From: Anaeromyxobacteraceae bacterium
GTDB taxonomy: Bacteria > Myxococcota > Myxococcia > Myxococcales > Anaeromyxobacteraceae
Direction of reading: 5' to 3'
Length of the DNA stretch: 64,000 nt
Assembly: GCA_047602405.1 (NCBI GenBank)
Contig: JASGHJ010000002.1
Location: forward strand, 1,152,001 to 1,216,000
Positions 55,793 through 63,835 of this stretch are shown piece after piece. The translations under genes and the position numbers were made by a program. The stretch's first letter is position 1. Every line of letters begins with the position of its first letter. A model generated the notes under the pieces. It was given only the letters and a program-made list of their open reading frames with translations. It did not search any database and had not been told where the DNA came from.

Positions 55793-56037
55793 CGGCCGGC
55801 TCGCCGGGCCTCTCCGCACCGCTTGGCCTTGGGCAAAGGCCCGCCGCGTCGGGGATCCTGGGGGCGGAGGAGAGCCGCTGGTGACCCGCGGCGCGTCCAC
55901 GCATGCCAGGCGAGCGACCGTGGCCGTGAGGGATCGGGTTCAGCGGTTCGCCTGGCATGCTCCGCGCAGATCGCGGCGCCGTCTTTGGGCGGGCCTGCCG
56001 AAAGCCGGCGGTGCGGAGAGGCCCGGCGATCCGGCCG
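55793..56037 (+). ncRNA. Structured non-coding element, copy A (putative ncRNA or REPIN/MITE-like)
   Basis: Self-complementary ends; shares identical 58-, 35- and 12-nt blocks with inverted copy B; stems covary between copies. Confidence 0.55.
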
Positions 56038-56166
56038 CCTGCGATCGAGGCCGAACGGCGAAGGGCCGTTTCGGCGAGAGGGACGGGACTGGACCGGACG
56101 GACCGGACCCGCTCGTCTCGCGAGCTCCGCGAGTACAGCTCGCCTCACCCCATCTCCACGCCACGA

Positions 56167-56436
56167 GGACGCATCGCGGGGTCTCTCCGCACCGCCGGCT
56201 TTCGGCAGGCCCGCCCAGAATCGCAGCCGCGATCTGCACCAAGCGTGCAAGCCGAGGCGGCCAGCACCGCATCGCCTTCGTCGCCGCCCCGCGGCCATCC
56301 GCGACGCCCCTTCCGCCTCGGCTGGCACGCGTGGTGGTGCCGCGGCCCTCCCATCCGAGGCACCGCCCCCAGGATCCCCGACGCGGCGGGCCTTTGCCCA
56401 AGGCCAAGCGGTGCGGAGAGACCCCGCGAGGCGTCC
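56167..56436 (-). ncRNA. Structured non-coding element, copy B (inverted relative to A)
   Basis: 56363-56420 is the reverse complement of 55810-55867; 56183-56217 is the reverse complement of 55986-56020. Confidence 0.55.
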
Positions 56437-56529
56437 GCACGGACCCGCCACGAGACGCAAGACGGAAGACGCACGGAAGACGCAAGACGGACCCGCCGCA
56501 AGAAGCCGGCCCGTCGGCACCGCCACCCG

Positions 56530-58419
56530 CTACGGTCCCGACGCCGCCGGCTCGACCACCGGGGCCGGCGCGGGCGCCGCCACGAACGCGAGCGGCTCCG
56601 CGAGCGCCGCGATGAGCCCTTCGTCGCCGATGACCCCGTGCTGGGCCATGTGGAGCAGGATCTCCCCGACGCGCTGCTCGAGGTACGGCGTCGGCGCGCC
56701 CTGGGCGCGCACGGCGTCGGCGCGGACCGGGTTCGGGATCACCGCCGCGAGGAACGCCGCCTCCTTCACGGTGAGCGCGCGGGCGTCCTTCCCGAACCAG
56801 TGCCGCGCCGCCGGGCCGATGCCGAACACGCCCGGGCCCCACTCGGCGAGGTTCAGGTAGATCTCGAGGATCCGCGCCTTCGGCAGCGTGGCCTCGAGGG
56901 CGATCGCGCCGAGCGCCTCCCGGACCTTCCGCGCGAGGACCTTGTCGCGCGTGAGCCAGAGGTTCTTCGCGACCTGCTGGGTGATGGTGGAGCCGCCGCG
57001 CACGACCCGGCCCTGCTCGAGGCCGGCCTGGAGCGCGTTCGTGAGCTCGTCGAAGTCGAAGCCGGCGTGGCCGAAGAAGCCGGCGTCCTCGCTCGTCGTG
57101 ACCGCGCGGACGACGTGCTCGGGCAGCTCCGCGATGGGGACGTAGTCCGGGTTCTCCGGGCCGATCGTGAACGGCGCGCCGCCGTCCGGCGCGTACCGGA
57201 ACGGTGCCTTCAGCGCGACCGGCGGGGCCTTCCGCGCCGCGGCCCGCATGCGGGCGAGGTCGAGCCCCGCCTCCACGCGCCAGGTGCTTGGCTCCCGGAG
57301 CGCGCCCGAGAGCGCGAGCTCGGCGTCGAGGTCGCCGGGCGGGCGGGGCGCCTCGTCCGGCGGGCCGAGGCCGGGCGGCAGCGAGGCGGCGAACGCGGCG
57401 AACGCGACGTGGCGCGCGTCGAGCGCGAGCTCGAAGGGGAGGGCGCCTTCGAGCCGGACCTGCCCGGACAGCGCCGCCGCGAGCGCCGACCCGAGGGCGA
57501 GCTGCCCGCCGCGCCAGGAGAGCGTGCGGCTCGCGCGGTCCCAGGCGAGCTCGCCGGACGCGGCGAGGCGGAAGGGGCCGACCGGCGCGGGGTCGATCCG
57601 CGCCGCCTGCACGACGAGCCCGTCGACGCCCGCCGTCACGCTCCCGCTCGCGCGCGAGAGGTCGCGCGGGGCCGAGGCGTCGAGCACGATGGCGGCGGCG
57701 CCCGCGCGGACGTCGGCCGGGAGGTGGGCGCGCAGCGCCTCGCCGAGCGCGCCGGCGCGGAGCCCCTCCGCCCGGAGCGCGACGCGGAGCTCCCCGGCGG
57801 GCGCGCCGCCCGGGAGGCGGACCACGAGGGCGATCCGCCCCGCGTCCGGCAGGCGCGCCTCGGCCCGCACGAGGTCGGGCTCCGGCCAGGCGTCGAGGTC
57901 GAAGGGCCCGAGGTCGGCCGCGGCGCCGCCGAGCGGCACCGCGACGACGAGCCCGCGCACGTGCACGCGCGGCCAGGCGCGAGGCCGCGGGGCGGCCCCG
58001 GGCCGCGAGGGCGAGGCGGCGCGGCGGTCCGCGAGGGCGCGCAGCGCGGCGGGTCGGGTGGCGTCCACCCGGACGCCGTGCAGGCGCAGGGACGCGATCT
58101 CGAGGCGCCCGGCGAGGAGCGCGAGCGGGGCGGCGCGCAGGCGGAGCCGCTCGACCGTGACCGCCGGCGCCTCCGGGGTCCCGCCGAGCGCGAGCGGACC
58201 GGCGACGACGCGGAACAGCGGGTCGACCGCGACCGGCCCCAGCGCGACCTCGCCGACCCGGGCCCGGAGCGCGCGCTCGGCGCGGTCGCGCAGCGCCTCG
58301 CGCACGCCCGGCAGCCACGCTGCAACCTGCAGCGCGGCGTACACCCCGGCGAGCACCGCGAGCGCGAGGAGCGCCCTCCGGAGGCGCGCGGCGCGGGGTT
58401 TCGGGGGGCGGATCGCCAT
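56530..58419 (-). CDS. Monofunctional peptidoglycan transglycosylase (GT51) with long N-terminal extension
   Basis: SEDAGFFGHAGFD, RGGSTITQQVAKNL, RKVRE, KARILEIYLN, GIGPAA. Confidence 0.9.
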   Translation of the reverse strand: MAIRPPKPRAARLRRALLALAVLAGVYAALQVAAWLPGVREALRDRAERALRARVGEVALGPVAVDPLFRVVAGPLALGGTPEAPAVTVERLRLRAAPLALLAGRLEIASLRLHGVRVDATRPAALRALADRRAASPSRPGAAPRPRAWPRVHVRGLVVAVPLGGAAADLGPFDLDAWPEPDLVRAEARLPDAGRIALVVRLPGGAPAGELRVALRAEGLRAGALGEALRAHLPADVRAGAAAIVLDASAPRDLSRASGSVTAGVDGLVVQAARIDPAPVGPFRLAASGELAWDRASRTLSWRGGQLALGSALAAALSGQVRLEGALPFELALDARHVAFAAFAASLPPGLGPPDEAPRPPGDLDAELALSGALREPSTWRVEAGLDLARMRAAARKAPPVALKAPFRYAPDGGAPFTIGPENPDYVPIAELPEHVVRAVTTSEDAGFFGHAGFDFDELTNALQAGLEQGRVVRGGSTITQQVAKNLWLTRDKVLARKVREALGAIALEATLPKARILEIYLNLAEWGPGVFGIGPAARHWFGKDARALTVKEAAFLAAVIPNPVRADAVRAQGAPTPYLEQRVGEILLHMAQHGVIGDEGLIAALAEPLAFVAAPAPAPVVEPAASGP

Positions 58420-58535
58420 GAGAGCGGGCCTGTTTACAGCCGCTTGGACGCTCGATCAACCGGGCGGGTGGGACCCGTGTGACGGCGTATGCGTGAAGGA
58501 AGAGATCCCCGGGCAACCGGTTATATTCCCGGAGG

Positions 58536-59669
58536 ATGGACAGGACCGCGACGCCGATTCCCAGGCCCCGGCGCCGCCGCGATCACGTCGCGGCGCGCGT
58601 CGCGCTCGCGCTCCTCGTCTCGCTCCTCGCGAACGGCCTGCTCCTGTGGATCGCGGTCGTCACCGGCGCCTTCGACGTCGGCAAGCCCGTGAAGGTCTCG
58701 CAGGTCTCGCTCTCGCAGCTCTCCGCCTCCGACTGGGCGAAGAACCGGGGCGCCGCGGCGCCGCCGCCGGCCCCTCCGCCGCGGCTCGTGCCGGTCCCCG
58801 AGCCCACCCAGGACGGCGGCACGGTCGTGAAGCTCCCGCCCGGCGCCGACGGGAAGCCGCCGAAGGAGGCCCGCTTCCTCGCCGAGCGCGACCAGTCCGT
58901 CGAGCGGGAGACCGTCTCGCGCTACGCGACCGGCCACGACGGCCCCGTGCTCCCCGCGCCCCAGCTCGCCGGCAAGCCCGCCCCCCAGCCTCCGCCGAAG
59001 GGCGAGCAGCAGCCGGAGCGGAAGCCCGAGGACGCGAAGCCCCGGAAGGACGGCGCCAGGCCGCAACGCGAGCAGCTCGCGATGCTCGACCCCTCGCGCG
59101 AGGGGCTCGTGCCGCCGCCCGCCGAGGCGCGCCGACGCCAGGCCGGTGAGGCCGCTGGCGATCCGCGCAAGGCCTCCCCCGCGACGGAGCCCGACCTGAC
59201 CCCGCGCGCGCCCGGCCTCGGCAGCCTCGCGACCGGCGCGCCCAACGAGGACGGGATGGGGCAGGGGCTCGAGGAGGGCGACGTCACCGCCCTCAACACC
59301 CGCAAGTCCGAGGTCGCGAAGTACCTCAACTCGTTCGGCGACCGCATCGCGAGCTGGTGGCGCGGCCGCACCCGCGCCGCCATCGGCGAGCGCGATCCCG
59401 AGGCGCGGATCTTCTTCTACAAGGACCGCACGGCGGTGTTCCTGGTGCGGATCGAGTCGAGCGGGCAGCTCGCCGAGGTCCGGCTGCTGCAGTCGTCGAA
59501 CGTGGACTTCTTCGACCAGATCGCGCTCTCGGCCATCCGGCAGGCCGCGCCGTTCCCGCCGCCGCCCGCGAGCGTGCTCGACCGCACCGGCGAGTTCCGC
59601 TTCACGCAGGGTTTCACCGCGCAGGGCCCGCAGGCGCCGCGCGGCTGGGACTGGCGCCCGGGCCAGTAG
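58536..59669 (+). CDS. TonB C-terminal domain protein
   Basis: N-terminal TM, Pro-rich linker, IESSGQL...QSSNVDFFDQIALSAIRQAAPFPPPP. Confidence 0.85.
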   Translation: MDRTATPIPRPRRRRDHVAARVALALLVSLLANGLLLWIAVVTGAFDVGKPVKVSQVSLSQLSASDWAKNRGAAAPPPAPPPRLVPVPEPTQDGGTVVKLPPGADGKPPKEARFLAERDQSVERETVSRYATGHDGPVLPAPQLAGKPAPQPPPKGEQQPERKPEDAKPRKDGARPQREQLAMLDPSREGLVPPPAEARRRQAGEAAGDPRKASPATEPDLTPRAPGLGSLATGAPNEDGMGQGLEEGDVTALNTRKSEVAKYLNSFGDRIASWWRGRTRAAIGERDPEARIFFYKDRTAVFLVRIESSGQLAEVRLLQSSNVDFFDQIALSAIRQAAPFPPPPASVLDRTGEFRFTQGFTAQGPQAPRGWDWRPGQ

Positions 59670-59780
59670 CCGGTCCCCCCCCCCCGCCGCTCGCGCACCG
59701 GCCGTGCGGCCCGCACCGCGGGTCGCCGGATCGCGCGCCGTCACCCCGCCGTGACACGGCGCGACTAGGATGCGCGGCAT

Positions 59781-61711
59781 GGTGCGTCGTGGAAGCTGCA
59801 CCGATCCAGCCGGTGAGAGTCCGGTCCGGGTAATCGCCGGAGAGCCCGGAAGCAGGCACCAGCTTGTCCGGGAGACCGGGCATGCCGAGCGGTGCGTCGA
59901 AAGCCTCACGTACGGAGGAAGCGAAGCGGCGGGCCGCAACAAGGTGAACGCTTCAGCCTCGACAGATCCTCAGCCGAAAGGTGTTCGGGAGCGCCGAGCC
60001 GGTCATGCCACGGCGAAGGCGATGCACAGCGTCCTTGGTCCGGAACGGACGCTGGGGCTCCCCGGGGTAGGGGCGGCGGCACGTCGCGAAGGATCGGTGT
60101 GGAACACGAGAGACCCTCGCCGGCAGCCCGCGTCGGGCAGAGACCGAGCGCATAAGACGGGAGTCGAAAGCGCGAGGAGCCGGAAGGGAGTCCGAGGGGC
60201 CCGTAGTACCGGTGAGGCGCGGGATAACCGCGCGGAGGGAAGGGGCCCTGCTTTGGTCGCGTCGGCACTGGGGGTAAGCGCGAGGGCATGGCCGTGAGGC
60301 CCAACACCCCCATCGACAAAGTGCGAGAACTCCAGCGCCGGCTTTACGTGGCCGCCAAGCGGAGCAGCACGCGGCGCTTTCACGCATTGTACGACCGGAT
60401 CTGCAGGGGTGACGTCCTGCGGGAAGCGTGGAAGCGGGTGCGCAGCAACGGAGGCGCGGCAGGGGTGGACGGCGAGTCCATCCGGGCCATCGAGGAGAGC
60501 GGAGTCGAGGCGTTCCTCGAAGGGATCCAGGCCGATCTCCTGGCAGGCGAATACCGCCCCCTCCCGGTGAGGCGGCGGTACATCCCGAAGGCAGACGGAA
60601 AGCAGCGGCCGCTCGGGATCCCGACGGTGCGGGATCGCGTGGCGCAGATGGCTGCGAAGTTGGTGCTCGAGCCGATCTTCGAGGCCGACTTCCTGTCGTC
60701 GAGCTACGGGTTCCGGCCGAAGCGGAGCGCGACGCAGGCGCTGGAGGCCATCCGCGAGGCTGGCAACCAGGGTCACAACTTCGTGCTCGACGCCGACATC
60801 AAGGCGTACTTCGACAGCATCGACCAGCAGAAGCTGATGGCGATGGTGGCGGAGCGGATCTCGGACCGCAGGGTGCTGAAGCTCCTGCGGAAGTGGCTGG
60901 AGGCCGGGGTGATGGAGGAGGGCACGGTGAGAAACCCCGTGGCGGGAACGCCACAGGGTGGAGTGATCTCGCCGCTGCTCGCCAACGTCTACCTGCACGA
61001 GCTCGACCGGATCTGGGCGCAGAGGTGCAAGCACCTCGGCGTCCTGGTGCGGTACGCCGACGACTTCGTCGTGATGTGCGGGACGGAGTCGAAGGTGAAC
61101 GAGGCGAGGCGGCGCGTCGAGCTCATCATGGCGCGCCTCGGCCTGACGCTGCACCCGGAGAAGACGCGGATCGTCGATCTGAGGCGAGGAAAGGAAGGCT
61201 TCACCTTCCTCGGGTGCGTGAACCGGAAGCGGCGCAGCATCCAGCGGCGCCCCGACCGGCACTACATGCACCGCTGGCCCTCACCGAAGGCGATGACCCG
61301 CGTCCGCGAGCGCGTCCACGAGCTGACGGACGTGCGCAGGAGCGGGGCGAAGGACGTGAAGGAGGTCATCGCGTCCGTGAACCCCGTCATCCGGGGCTGG
61401 GCCAACTACTTCCGGACCGGAACAGCGGATTGGGAGTTCAACCGCGTCGACTGGTACGTGCACGAACGGATCACGCGCTGGCTCCATCGGCGCGGTGGTC
61501 AGCGGACTCGCTATCAGTACGAGGCTTGGCCCTTCGAACGTCTCTTCGAGCTTGGCCTGCACCGCTGCATGGGCCGCGTCCGCTACCCCGCGCAAGCTGC
61601 CGCGCGAAGACCATCGTTAAGCCGTGTGCGGGAAACCCGCACGCACGGTTTGAAAGGAGGCCCTGGAACCAGGCTGGCCTAACGGCCGGTACTGCGCCAG
61701 GATCGACCAAT
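59781..61711 (+). mobile_element. Group II intron (full length) inserted at the mgsA start codon
   Basis: 5' GTGCG at 59782; domain V AAGCCGTGTGCGGGAAACCCGCACGCACGGTTT at 61619-61651; domain VI ending ...CGACCAAT; internal RT ORF. Confidence 0.92.
60288..61682 (+). CDS. ltrA: Group II intron reverse transcriptase/maturase (no endonuclease domain)
   Basis: [67 protein letters not shown]. Confidence 0.97.
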
Positions 61712-62210
61712 GCCGAACCGCCGCGTCCCGATGAAGCCCGTGAAGAACGTCGTCCTCATCGCCCACGACTCGAGGAAGCAGGATCTCCTGGAGTGGGTGA
61801 AGTACAACCAGCCCGTCCTCCGCGAGCACCGCCTCTTCGCCACCGGCACGACCGGAGGCCTCGTGCAGACCGCGACCGGCCTGCCGGTGACCCGCTTCAA
61901 GAGCGGCCCGCTCGGCGGCGACCAGCAGGTCGGCGCCAAGATCGCCGAGGGCGACCTCGACGTGCTCGTGTTCTTCTGGGATCCGCTCGAGCCGCAGCCC
62001 CACGATCCGGACGTGAAGGCGCTGCTCCGCATCGCGGTGCTCTACAACGTGCCGACCGCCTGCAACCGCGCCACCGCCGACTTCCTCGTGGCGTCGTCGC
62101 TCTTCCACGGCGCCTACGAGCGCCTCGTGGAGGACCACGAGGCGGCTCGCGAGGCGTGGCTGAAGGCGCAGGCGGCGGCGATCGCCGGGCCCGCGCCGGC
62201 CCGGCGCTAG
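61710..62210 (+). CDS. mgsA: Methylglyoxal synthase
   Basis: LIAHD, ATGTTG, SGPLGGDQQVGA, FFWDPL.PQPHDPDVKALLR, ACNRATAD. Confidence 0.97.
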   Translation: MPNRRVPMKPVKNVVLIAHDSRKQDLLEWVKYNQPVLREHRLFATGTTGGLVQTATGLPVTRFKSGPLGGDQQVGAKIAEGDLDVLVFFWDPLEPQPHDPDVKALLRIAVLYNVPTACNRATADFLVASSLFHGAYERLVEDHEAAREAWLKAQAAAIAGPAPARR

Positions 62211-62215
62211 CGCCT

Positions 62216-62267
62216 CCGCTCGTCCCCGAGCCCTTCGACGGGCTCAGGGGGAACGGAGTCGAAGGAC
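62216..62267. repeat. REP-like palindrome between convergent mgsA and gcvPB
   Basis: CCGCTCGTCCCCGAGC-CCTTCGACGGGCTCAGGGGGAACGG-AGTCGAAGG; nested self-complementary units resembling GTCCTGAGC..GTCGAAGG-type repeats. Confidence 0.6.
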
Positions 62268-62269
62268 GA

Positions 62270-63835
62270 CTACTTCACGTCCATCCCAGGCTTCCAGCGC
62301 AGGACGGGCTTCCGCGCCGCGCGGGTCTCGTCGAGGCGCTGGCGCACCGGCTTCTGCGGGGAGGCCTTGAGGGCCGCCGCGTCGGTCTTCGCCTCCTCGG
62401 CGATGGCGCGCATCGCGGCGACGAAGCCGTCGATGGCCTCCTTCGACTCGGTCTCGGTGGGCTCGATCATGAGCGCGCCGTGCACCACCAGCGGGAAGTA
62501 GATGGTGGGCGGGTGGAAGCCGTGGTCGATGAGCCGCTTCGCGACGTCCATCGTCGTGACGTCGTGGGCCCCCTGCGCGGCGTCGTCGAAGACCACCTCG
62601 TGGAGCGAGTCGGTCTCGTAGGGCAGGTGGAACACGTCGCGCAGCTTCGCCCGGACGTAGTTCGCGTTCAGCACGGCGAGGCGGCCGGTGAGGGCCACGC
62701 CCTCCGGGCCGTACTCGCGGATGAGCGCCCAGGCCCGGACGAACATGCCGAAGTTGCCCCACCACTCGCGGATCTTGCCGACCGTCTGCGGGCGCTCCTT
62801 CGGATCCGTGACGAGGCGGTACTGCTCGCCCTCCTTCACGACGACCGGGAGCGGCTGGTAGGGCGCGAGCGACGCCTTCATCGCGACCGGGCCGGAGCCC
62901 GGCCCGCCGCCGCCGTGCGGCGTCGCGAAGGTCTTGTGGAGGTTGTACTGGATGACGTCGAACCCCATGTCGCCGGGGCGCGCCACGCCGAGCAGCGCGT
63001 TCATGTTCGCGCCGTCGCCGTACACGAGCCCGCCCTTCGCGTGCACGATCTCGGCGATCTCCCCGATGTGGCTCTCGAAGATCCCGAGCGTGTTCGGGTT
63101 CGTGATCATGATGCAGGCGACGTCCTCGTCCATCGCCGCCCGCACCGCGTCGGGGTGGAGCTTGCCGTCCTCGCCGGAGGCGACCGGGACGACGTCGTAA
63201 CCGTTGAGCGCCGAGGAGGCCGGGTTCGTGCCGTGCGCGGTGTCCGGGATCAGCACCTTCTTGCGCGGGTTGCCGCGCGCCTCGTGGTAGGCGCGGATCA
63301 GCATGAGCCCGGTGAGCTCGCCCTGCGCGCCCGCGGCCGGCGAGAGCGCGGTGCAGTCCATGCCGGCGATCTCGGAGAGCGCGCGCTCGAGGCCGTACAT
63401 GAGCTCGAGCGAGCCCTGCACGAGCGCGGGCGCGGCGAGCGGGTGCGCGTTCGCGAAGGCGGGCAGGCGCGCGAGCGCCTCGCTCGACTTCGGGTTGTAC
63501 TTCATGGTGCAGGAGCCGAGCGGGTAGAACCCGGTGTCGATGCCGTGGTTCCACGCCGAGAGGCGGGTGAAGTGGCGGACCACCTCGAGCTCGGAGAGCT
63601 CGGGCAGCCCGGCCACCTCGGCGCGCAGCAGCGCCGCGGGCAGCTCGGAGGCGGGCTCGGCCTTGCCGCCCGGGGGCGGCAAGGAGACGCCGGAGCGCCC
63701 GGGCGAGCCCTGCTCGAAGACGAGCTTCTCCTCGTAGGCGATGCCGCGGGTGGCTCCGCCGACGCCGACGTCGTCGCGGGCACCGCCGCCCGCGCCCTCG
63801 TTCATGGTGGGCTTCCAGCCGGTCGCGTTGGCCAT
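62270..63835 (-). CDS. gcvPB: Glycine dehydrogenase subunit 2
   Basis: FYPLGSCTMKYNP, PAAGAQGE, AHGTNPAS, NLHKTFATPHGGGGPGSGP, MIEPTETE. Confidence 0.97.
   Translation of the reverse strand: MANATGWKPTMNEGAGGGARDDVGVGGATRGIAYEEKLVFEQGSPGRSGVSLPPPGGKAEPASELPAALLRAEVAGLPELSELEVVRHFTRLSAWNHGIDTGFYPLGSCTMKYNPKSSEALARLPAFANAHPLAAPALVQGSLELMYGLERALSEIAGMDCTALSPAAGAQGELTGLMLIRAYHEARGNPRKKVLIPDTAHGTNPASSALNGYDVVPVASGEDGKLHPDAVRAAMDEDVACIMITNPNTLGIFESHIGEIAEIVHAKGGLVYGDGANMNALLGVARPGDMGFDVIQYNLHKTFATPHGGGGPGSGPVAMKASLAPYQPLPVVVKEGEQYRLVTDPKERPQTVGKIREWWGNFGMFVRAWALIREYGPEGVALTGRLAVLNANYVRAKLRDVFHLPYETDSLHEVVFDDAAQGAHDVTTMDVAKRLIDHGFHPPTIYFPLVVHGALMIEPTETESKEAIDGFVAAMRAIAEEAKTDAAALKASPQKPVRQRLDETRAARKPVLRWKPGMDVK

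Follow-up and report, generated by a model that had tools for sequence, protein, structure and literature searches.

The stretch considered here (the window) comprises 64,000 nucleotides from an Anaeromyxobacteraceae bacterium (assembly GCA_047602405.1, contig JASGHJ010000002.1, positions 1,152,001 to 1,216,000 of the forward strand), and all positions below are counted from its first letter. It carries a group II intron of 1,931 nt (59782-61712, plus strand) directly behind the start codon of mgsA, the gene for methylglyoxal synthase. Our reading, to which we assign a probability of about 0.65, is that this intron belongs to a widespread, undescribed group II lineage acting as a promoter-and-start-codon trap of leaderless genes, which gives the trapped host gene a spare AUG at the intron's 3' end. 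This reading relies on the sites of eight genomic copies, on covariation between introns and targets, and on the frame that the captured start codon opens into the intron.

The intron, its host gene, and its genomic copies

A group II intron at the mgsA start had already been recognized in a preliminary description of this DNA, and profile searches and folding agree. Domain I matches Rfam RF02003 (59807-59944, E 3e-18), and domains V and VI are well formed (fold z -4.7). The intact open reading frame (ORF) of 464 aa encodes a reverse transcriptase (RT) that scores 431.6 bits with TIGR04416, above the cut-off, matches PF00078 and PF08388, and shows the active-site motif YADD; no endonuclease family was found in it by Pfam or NCBIfam profile search. 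A six-domain ribozyme with domains V and VI, an intact RT/maturase, and both filled and empty sites were thus found, as in mobile group II introns. The intron starts with GUGCG and ends with ACCAAUG, which departs from the canonical AY 3' end; AUG with a compensatory gamma C is a variant that leaves group II membership unaffected.

In-silico excision of the intron yields an mgsA product beginning M-P-N-R-R, with 13 residues ahead of VVLIAHD, as previously proposed, and E. coli MgsA (1B93) has the identical offset to the equivalent of this motif. The gene is present in 14 of 40 other genomes searched, the closest being that of G010. There, the allele is intron-free: the upstream TAGGAT is kept and is followed by ATG CCG AAC, and not by the later start that the preliminary description had named as fatal to its account. 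The pairing between exon-binding site 1 (EBS1) and intron-binding site 1 (IBS1), which that description had left to be found, was identified as well, EBS1 (60004-60009) being the exact complement of GGCATG at 59776-59781.

The host genome (74% G+C) holds eight intron copies, 99.6-100% identical, one of which is internally deleted. All eight lie directly behind a start codon (seven ATG, one GTG) and all end in ACCAATG, the terminal ATG opening ORFs of 148-595 codons; start-codon targeting, and an ATG that the intron provides in the frame of the gene behind it, were both suspected earlier from the mgsA copy and hold for all eight. The target genes encode a LysR regulator, two histidine kinases, GalT, MgsA, and three products without Pfam match at 1e-8 (part scanned). 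The six sites looked up in G010 are all empty. The copy of that genome lies elsewhere and is 94% identical, with an EBS1 reading CAC, a GTG at the site, and GTG as intron end. In all eight copies, the sense strand is the locally G-rich strand, in two only barely, and host genes share this bias; orientation on the G-rich strand is likewise reported for class F introns (PMC8919778).

Some individual copies deviate: C1:1300399-1302089 has an in-frame internal deletion of the RT (384 aa), and in C2:1786956-1788887 a 1-nt insertion ends the frame opened by the host start codon after 12 codons. At position 61705, beside the branch A, all eight copies carry G where the G010 copy and most relatives have T. 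This breaks one domain VI pair, and the element has spread despite the change.

Relatives were taken as the best 80 of at least 594 loci. Their 5' ends were called for 59 introns (that of mgsA included), 40 of them seeded at first with a pattern that demands RTG, and 3' ends were assigned by matching a list of motifs. Both ends of L092 had been mis-called, and it was left out of the covariation and frame counts; L057 was too short for the tree. With a motif confined to the intron's 5' end, 55 unique calls were obtained from 81, preceded by ATG (43), GTG (7), TTG (1), or another triplet (4); three of these last four are wrong calls or lie outside the clade. From the terminal RTG, an ORF of at least 100 codons opens in 40 of the 45 introns with enough flank, versus 6 and 19 in the other frames. 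Pfam matches were obtained for 32 of 42 target genes scanned, and their families are unrelated, including a class I tRNA synthetase, a DNA polymerase III clamp-loader subunit, MnmE, and SmpB. Some of these genes are normally essential, which would agree with the near-silent insertion suggested in the preliminary description.

A -10-like box ahead of the start codon

Seven of the eight sites carry TAGG[A/C]T 6-8 nt ahead of the start codon; four of the eight read TAGGCT, and the element in common is TAnnnT at this distance. In a wider set, it is found in 54 of the 56 sites with enough flank and, counting relatives only, in 51 of 52 at the true register versus 0-2 of 52 at 49 shifted registers. 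Within the genome, the seven box-bearing sites out of eight compare with 317 box-bearing starts among 4,527 gene starts, as called by our own simple predictor (p 6e-8). Genome-wide, TAnnnT occurs 154 times at spacing 6, versus 6-16 times at spacings 12-24 and about once before internal ATGs. In leaderless genes, TAnnnT is described about 12 bp ahead of the start codon (PMC3160421).

The AGGA upstream of mgsA, previously taken for a ribosome-binding site, is present before both ATGs, but it is not what the sites share, given TAGGCT at half of them. The better interpretation is a TAGGAT -10 box that includes these bases, a signature of leaderless genes, and the target genes are, on this pattern, probably transcribed without a leader. 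A sigma-70 scan of 58300-62400 returned no full promoter, but it demands a -35 box and hence carries little weight. Across the genus (L003-L014), mgsA alternates between starts led by a Shine-Dalgarno (SD) sequence (AGGAGG) and TA-box starts, and several of these alleles show a GTCAC word 30-60 nt upstream.

A stem-loop before the site, pointed out in the preliminary description, does exist, but it is not special: the z-score of its minimum free energy is -0.71 at mgsA and ranges from -0.59 to +1.83 at the other seven sites. As it is not shared among the eight sites, a hairpin serving as target signal, as in group IIC, was rejected. The relatives L088-L090 sit after terminator-like hairpins with T runs.

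Probable pairing of EBS2 with the box

In IIB introns, EBS2 is located 3 bases past the 5' strand of the distal domain I helix (PMC8643678). At that position, the intron reads GAUCCUC, which complements the AGG[A/C]T[C/G] core of the eight sites. Among 54 introns, EBS2 positions 1, 3, and 4 vary in concert with the base that follows the box and with the final two variable bases inside it, forming 36, 44, and 28 Watson-Crick pairs, versus 22, 24, and 13 after permutation; at position 2, A is almost invariant and lies opposite the box's last T. The total at variable positions reaches 126, versus 73.7 +- 5.9 permuted and 55-63 when EBS2 is slid, and within seven subclades, it is 124 versus 82.4 +- 5.2. 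Among 16 sister pairs, the intron's own site is favored in 10 and the swapped one in none, with 6 ties. In this genome, the fit to EBS2 is better at the seven sites with the box than at other starts that have one (p 2.5e-5), and GG is found in 7/7 of these sites versus 46/317 of the starts; as the comparison is made within one genome, host bias is removed. On this covariation, EBS2 very probably pairs with the -10-like box. If the target genes are leaderless, IBS2 exists only in DNA. Such an untranscribed IBS2 would be in line with what is reported for IIF introns, whose EBS2 is dispensable for splicing and is proposed to serve mobility (PMC3753933). An additional EBS2a pairing was considered and found unsupported, since C predominates at its position and the target base opposite is A (judged by eye).

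The pairings might suffice by themselves, the -10-like word being incidental and the preference for promoters arising from selection against other insertions. This explanation, which differs from the trap solely in how TA is chosen, is improbable, though it deserves more credit than any other rival. It accounts for the eighth site, where GAGGATC matches EBS2 perfectly but lacks the first T, and when only predicted starts are counted as candidates, 17 of 41 begin with T, so that the seven of eight occupied sites beginning with T reach only p 0.01. Against it, among all candidate sites chosen by sequence only, T comes first in just 40 of 372 and G, which is better paired and which EBS2 would favor, in 195, versus T in seven of the eight occupied sites (p 1e-6). 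In addition, across phyla, 54 of 56 sites retain TA though EBS2 pairs neither base in most of them, and the near-identity of the copies leaves little time for selection. As the leading TA is mostly unpaired yet preferred, protein contact, promoter opening, or selection must add to the preference.

The captured start codon and RT expression

The frame starting at the host ATG (59779) stays open for 172 codons and ends at a TGA (60295-60297) situated 7 nt past the RT ATG and overlapping a GTG (60294) in the RT frame. This layout is kept in seven of eight copies, and the G010 copy keeps the frame through 30 substitutions. Among 58 introns, the leader frame is open for at least 300 nt in 51, versus none in each of the other two frames. 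It is fused to the RT in 30 introns and stop/start-coupled in 20, including the mgsA copy (coupling being counted when the leader stop falls between -8 and +9 nt of an ATG or GTG in the RT frame; background 0.13), and the remaining 8 show neither state. Kin share the fused or coupled state, and each state is found in several subclades. It is quite probable, from these frames, that the RT is expressed from the captured start codon. In L045 and L047, the leader stops at about 40 codons at an ATGA overlap, from which the RT frame is open for about 500 nt; these are apparently frameshifted fusions rescued by stop/start coupling.

The open leader could instead be a mere by-product of high G+C, without any role in RT expression. 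The 5' half has 69% G+C, the leader peptide has no Pfam match, and the mgsA copy is not fused to its RT. This is nevertheless very unlikely, in view of the closed alternative frames and of the frame conserved in G010. Furthermore, the leader-to-RT distance is a multiple of 3 in 39 of 58 introns, with 5' halves of about 510-630 nt, and 20 of the 28 non-fused leaders stop within the narrow coupling interval.

Intron boundaries and RNA register

As G flanks the intron on both sides, excising 59781-61711 or 59782-61712 gives the same product, and the exons cannot choose between the two. The preliminary description had chosen the former: an extra 5' G (GGTGCG), insertion within AT^G, a canonical AU end, and a domain VI rebuilding ribosome-binding site and ATG, so that the insertion is nearly silent. 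The RNA registers lead elsewhere. The EBS1 loop reads U-CAUGCC, and its U60003 covaries with position 59955 as delta-delta' (55 A-U and 3 C-G among 58 introns). In IIB introns, delta lies immediately 5' of EBS1. EBS1 thus has C as its first base, and its partner GGCAUG has G59781 as its last, which places the entire start codon in the exon. J2/3 reads CGA here instead of the usual RGA. Of 65 introns with a called end (ends from the motif list, mis-called L092 still included), 58 combine a gamma C with a terminal G and 4 a gamma G with AC, while J2/3 was not found in 3. With G61712 as terminus, the unpaired A61706 is the 7th base from the end, as in Ni.ha.I1 and Bacillota relatives.

The earlier register, which produces the same ligated exon, retains in its favor AGGA 7-8 nt before both ATGs, an SD-like word ahead of the terminal RTG in 18 of the 55 introns whose end was called as RTG, and relative L041, in which ATT precedes the intron. 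It would require another first base of EBS1, ignore the covariation of gamma, and make the branch A the 6th base; as for the rebuilt ribosome-binding site, AGGC stands at four of eight sites, 37 of 55 ends lack an SD-like word, and here AGGA lies in the domain VI stem. We hold it to be very improbable. Almost certainly, on these pairings, the intron starts with an ordinary GUGCG and ends in an unusual AUG, with the targeted start codon wholly in the exon. Neither a rebuilt SD nor a rebuilt promoter at the 3' end is general (TAnnnT in 7 of 55), and this idea was rejected.

The weakest alternative, that the two ATGs (present at both ends in seven of eight copies) are a 3-bp target-site duplication outside the intron, was rejected on the discordant end triplets (GTG before and ATG after C2:1786956; 6 GTG/ATG, 2 ATG/GTG, and 1 TTG/ATG in relatives) and on the inclusion of the last G in the gamma pair.

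The terminal AUG is nearly universal within the clade. In the mgsA copy, the RT frame reads through domain V and stops in the domain VI loop 27 nt before the AUG, while most relatives stop before domain V; ribosomes finishing the RT could, we infer, expose the AGGA of the domain VI stem. The 3' end (61698-61712) is similar to the intron's own target, with AGGATC, a 6-nt spacer, and ATG. Terminal GTG is found in two of three members with EBS1 CAC (L108 and L060 are concerned), versus 2 of about 50 with CAU, and EBS1 may pair with the intron's own 3' end.

Several variants of the ends were seen among relatives. About 19 of the Actinomycetota-rich members (L035-L093) start with TTGCG or TCGCG, not GTGCG. 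In a separate Bacillota clade, the Paenibacillaceae introns L064, L073, L079, and L094 end in ...ACTCTAG, with J2/3 CGA where found, while their sisters end in ...ACTCTAC with J2/3 GGA, an apparently independent second switch to terminal G, as a TAG triplet. In L019 (4310 onward) and L074 (1629 onward), domain VI is broken by other sequence right after domain V, the L019 insert starting with GTGTG, which suggests a nested intron or an insertion.

Proposed mechanism and points that weigh against it

It is likely, judging from the sites and pairings, that the intron homes to the starts of predicted leaderless genes by pairing with both the start codon and the -10 box, and uses the captured promoter and start for its RT. 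The ribonucleoprotein would reverse-splice into single-stranded sense DNA, probably at the replication fork, like other introns lacking endonuclease (En-minus). EBS1 (CAUG) would read the start codon and 1-3 further bases, and EBS2 4-5 bases of the -10 box at variable distance; for the first T, unread by EBS2, the preference would come from protein, the opened promoter, or selection. The host promoter would then yield an RNA beginning AUG-GUGCG. Ribosomes starting at the captured AUG would traverse domains I-III and either continue into the RT (fusion) or stop and restart, as in the mgsA copy. Splicing would restore the host mRNA from a 5' exon as short as 3 nt. The terminal AUG, permitted by the compensatory gamma C-G pair, would let unspliced or half-spliced RNA yield the native protein, the start of which, in the mgsA copy, is possibly coupled to the RT stop just upstream.

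Several observations speak against this scheme. The eighth site (GAGGAT) has no TAnnnT, and the comparison with gene starts depends on our own predictor. Two to three congeners have a true AGGAGG ahead of mgsA, and if transcription reads through from the upstream gene, AGGA at mgsA itself could double as a weak SD. One of the eight copies has a frameshifted leader of 12 codons, and 8 of 58 introns show neither fusion nor coupling. EBS2 positions 5-7 give no covariation signal in the 54 introns, and no EBS3 partner was identified among 52 introns, whose first 3' exon base is G in 16, C in 16, A in 15, and T in 5. The ATT of L041 fits the one-base-earlier register, unless the host codon mutated after insertion. 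Finally, the relatives are kin and were limited to the best 80 loci, 40 of the 59 called 5' ends were RTG-seeded, and the 3' ends were motif-listed.

If the scheme is correct, a retroelement reads a promoter element by RNA-DNA pairing and secures its own transcription and translation at each new site, in contrast with the usual view of bacterial group II introns avoiding host genes. Homing sites, terminators, and attC would then be joined by a fourth targeting strategy, the first aimed at promoters, possibly at open complexes. It raises testable questions concerning splicing with a 3-nt 5' exon, translation versus ribozyme folding in domains I-III, and the terminal AUG as a fail-safe. In practice, the insertion sites of this family would mark leaderless starts in uncultured bacteria, and the variable IBS1-IBS2 spacing is unusual for targetron design.

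Lineage and comparison with known systems

Two trees were built from 92 RT sequences, and in both, the introns that end in AUG group together as a single clade of 65 rows (0.989 and SH-aLRT 98), spanning Myxococcota, Acidobacteriota, Planctomycetota, Pseudomonadota, Actinomycetota, and others. The nearest named relatives, on long branches and among four named references only, are Ni.ha.I1 (g3/class F, 41% identity) and Rh.sp.I1 (unclassified, 45%). FastTree places the clade as sister to the group holding Ni.ha.I1 (0.992), a placement that IQ-TREE does not resolve, and the FADD motif of g2 is absent. The lineage appears, on these trees, to lie near class F, and So.us.I2, My.va.I1, D.a.I1, or a g4 member may belong to the AUG-ending clade. 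Literature searches returned no description of the lineage, while Michel 2007, Simon 2008, and the Zimmerly database may list single members.

Class F, g2-g5, and unclassified En-minus introns (Ni.ha.I1, Rh.sp.I1, So.us.I2, Ge.ur.I1), as covered in PMC3552965 and PMC3753933, likewise encode an RT-X protein without endonuclease in about 1.9-2.1 kb, and share an IIB-like RNA and EBS2 with this lineage. In contrast, Ni.ha.I1 and an eight-copy intron of genome G051 have AC or AU ends, gamma G or A, and sites other than start codons, and Ge.ur.I1 ends in AC. The G051 copies (L137-L144) belong to another En-minus intron, sister to Ni.ha.I1, with an AC end and a recurring AATCATC site, several of them apparently inside repeated elements.

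The preliminary description had cited the Azotobacter groEL intron as an example of lineages that favor start or stop codons. The CL1/IIB1 start-stop lineage (Avi.groEL, EcKTE56.groEL; PMC12584367) also sits at host translation signals, and Avi.groEL also replaces a host codon by one made with intron sequence. Nevertheless, that lineage, as far as this account of it goes, has a 300-700 nt 5'-subterminal insertion in domain I, absent here (the Rfam domain I match starts 25 nt in and the RT 506 nt in), and a C-terminal endonuclease domain in its RT, which the 464-aa protein lacks. The present introns differ further in having numerous unrelated targets in each genome, a -10 box at the target, and AUG as their end. 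Lacking these two defining features, the intron is not in the CL1 start/stop-codon lineage (the tree contained no named CL1 sequence); in particular, it does not have the 5' insertion and the endonuclease domain.

Group IIC introns, which target terminators and attC (PMC4424553), likewise specialize in a recurring signal of gene expression; their sites are numerous in each genome, and their effective IBS1 is short. They are without EBS2 and read a DNA hairpin at the end of the transcription unit, whereas here EBS2 is kept, no hairpin is shared, and the start is targeted.

Mitochondrial introns likewise have their protein made by translation that begins at the host start codon and crosses the ribozyme's 5' half, and the fusion of host start codon and intron RT in bacteria parallels this arrangement. 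There, the upstream exon is long, coding, and part of a fixed gene, while here the start codon alone is captured anew at each insertion, and 20 of 58 introns use stop/start coupling instead of fusion.

Features and minor observations

Table 1. Coordinates of the intron, its target, and neighboring features in the window.
Feature	Position	Strand	Basis and remarks
TonB C-terminal-domain gene	58536..59669	+	ORF, TIGR01352/PF13103; could supply read-through transcription
GC-rich hairpin upstream of the site	59732..59763	+	Fold; no enrichment at the eight sites
TAGGAT, -10-like box 7 nt ahead of start codon	59766..59771	+	Putative IBS2 = its 3' part and the following base; kept in the G010 empty allele
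IBS1 GGCATG; its 3' end is the host ATG (59779-59781) and the 5' exon end	59776..59781	+	Exact complement of EBS1
Group II intron, GUGCG...ACCAAUG	59782..61712	+	Excision, copies, RNA registers
Leader frame across domains I-III, opened by the captured ATG (172 codons)	59779..60297	+	ORF; no Pfam match
EBS2 GAUCCUC	59965..59971	+	3 bases past 5' strand of distal domain I helix; complements AGG[A/C]T[C/G] target core
Delta U60003 (partner A59955), then EBS1 CAUGCC	60003..60009	+	Hairpin loop and covariation
J2/3 CGA; gamma C60193 pairs with terminal G61712	60193..60195	+	Covariation
RT/maturase, 464 aa, YADD, without endonuclease domain	60288..61682	+	ORF, profiles; runs through domain V, stops in domain VI loop
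Domain V	61619..61652	+	Fold
Domain VI; unpaired A61706 as putative branch point, 7th base from end	61656..61708	+	Fold
AGGA in 3' strand of domain VI	61699..61702	+	Fold
Intron-terminal AUG, in frame with mgsA	61710..61712	+	Excision, copies
3' exon: mgsA (methylglyoxal synthase) from codon 2	61713..62210	+	NF003559, 211 bits

Public RNA data were also searched. No run covered half of the region, and no spliced or circular joint at the intron ends was found among the joints listed for 7 RNA runs (contigs of other organisms), the listing for one set of runs holding 15 of 50 joints. A metatranscriptome contig (X15; 1,927 nt, about 92% identical) spans 59793-61712 plus 4 letters, without flanks, and a collapsed repeat would give such a contig as well as excised intron RNA. 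Phage sequences gave no match to the intron. Elsewhere in the window, 55940-56600 holds long inverted GC-rich repeats between converging genes, with mirror-like ORF translations on both strands.

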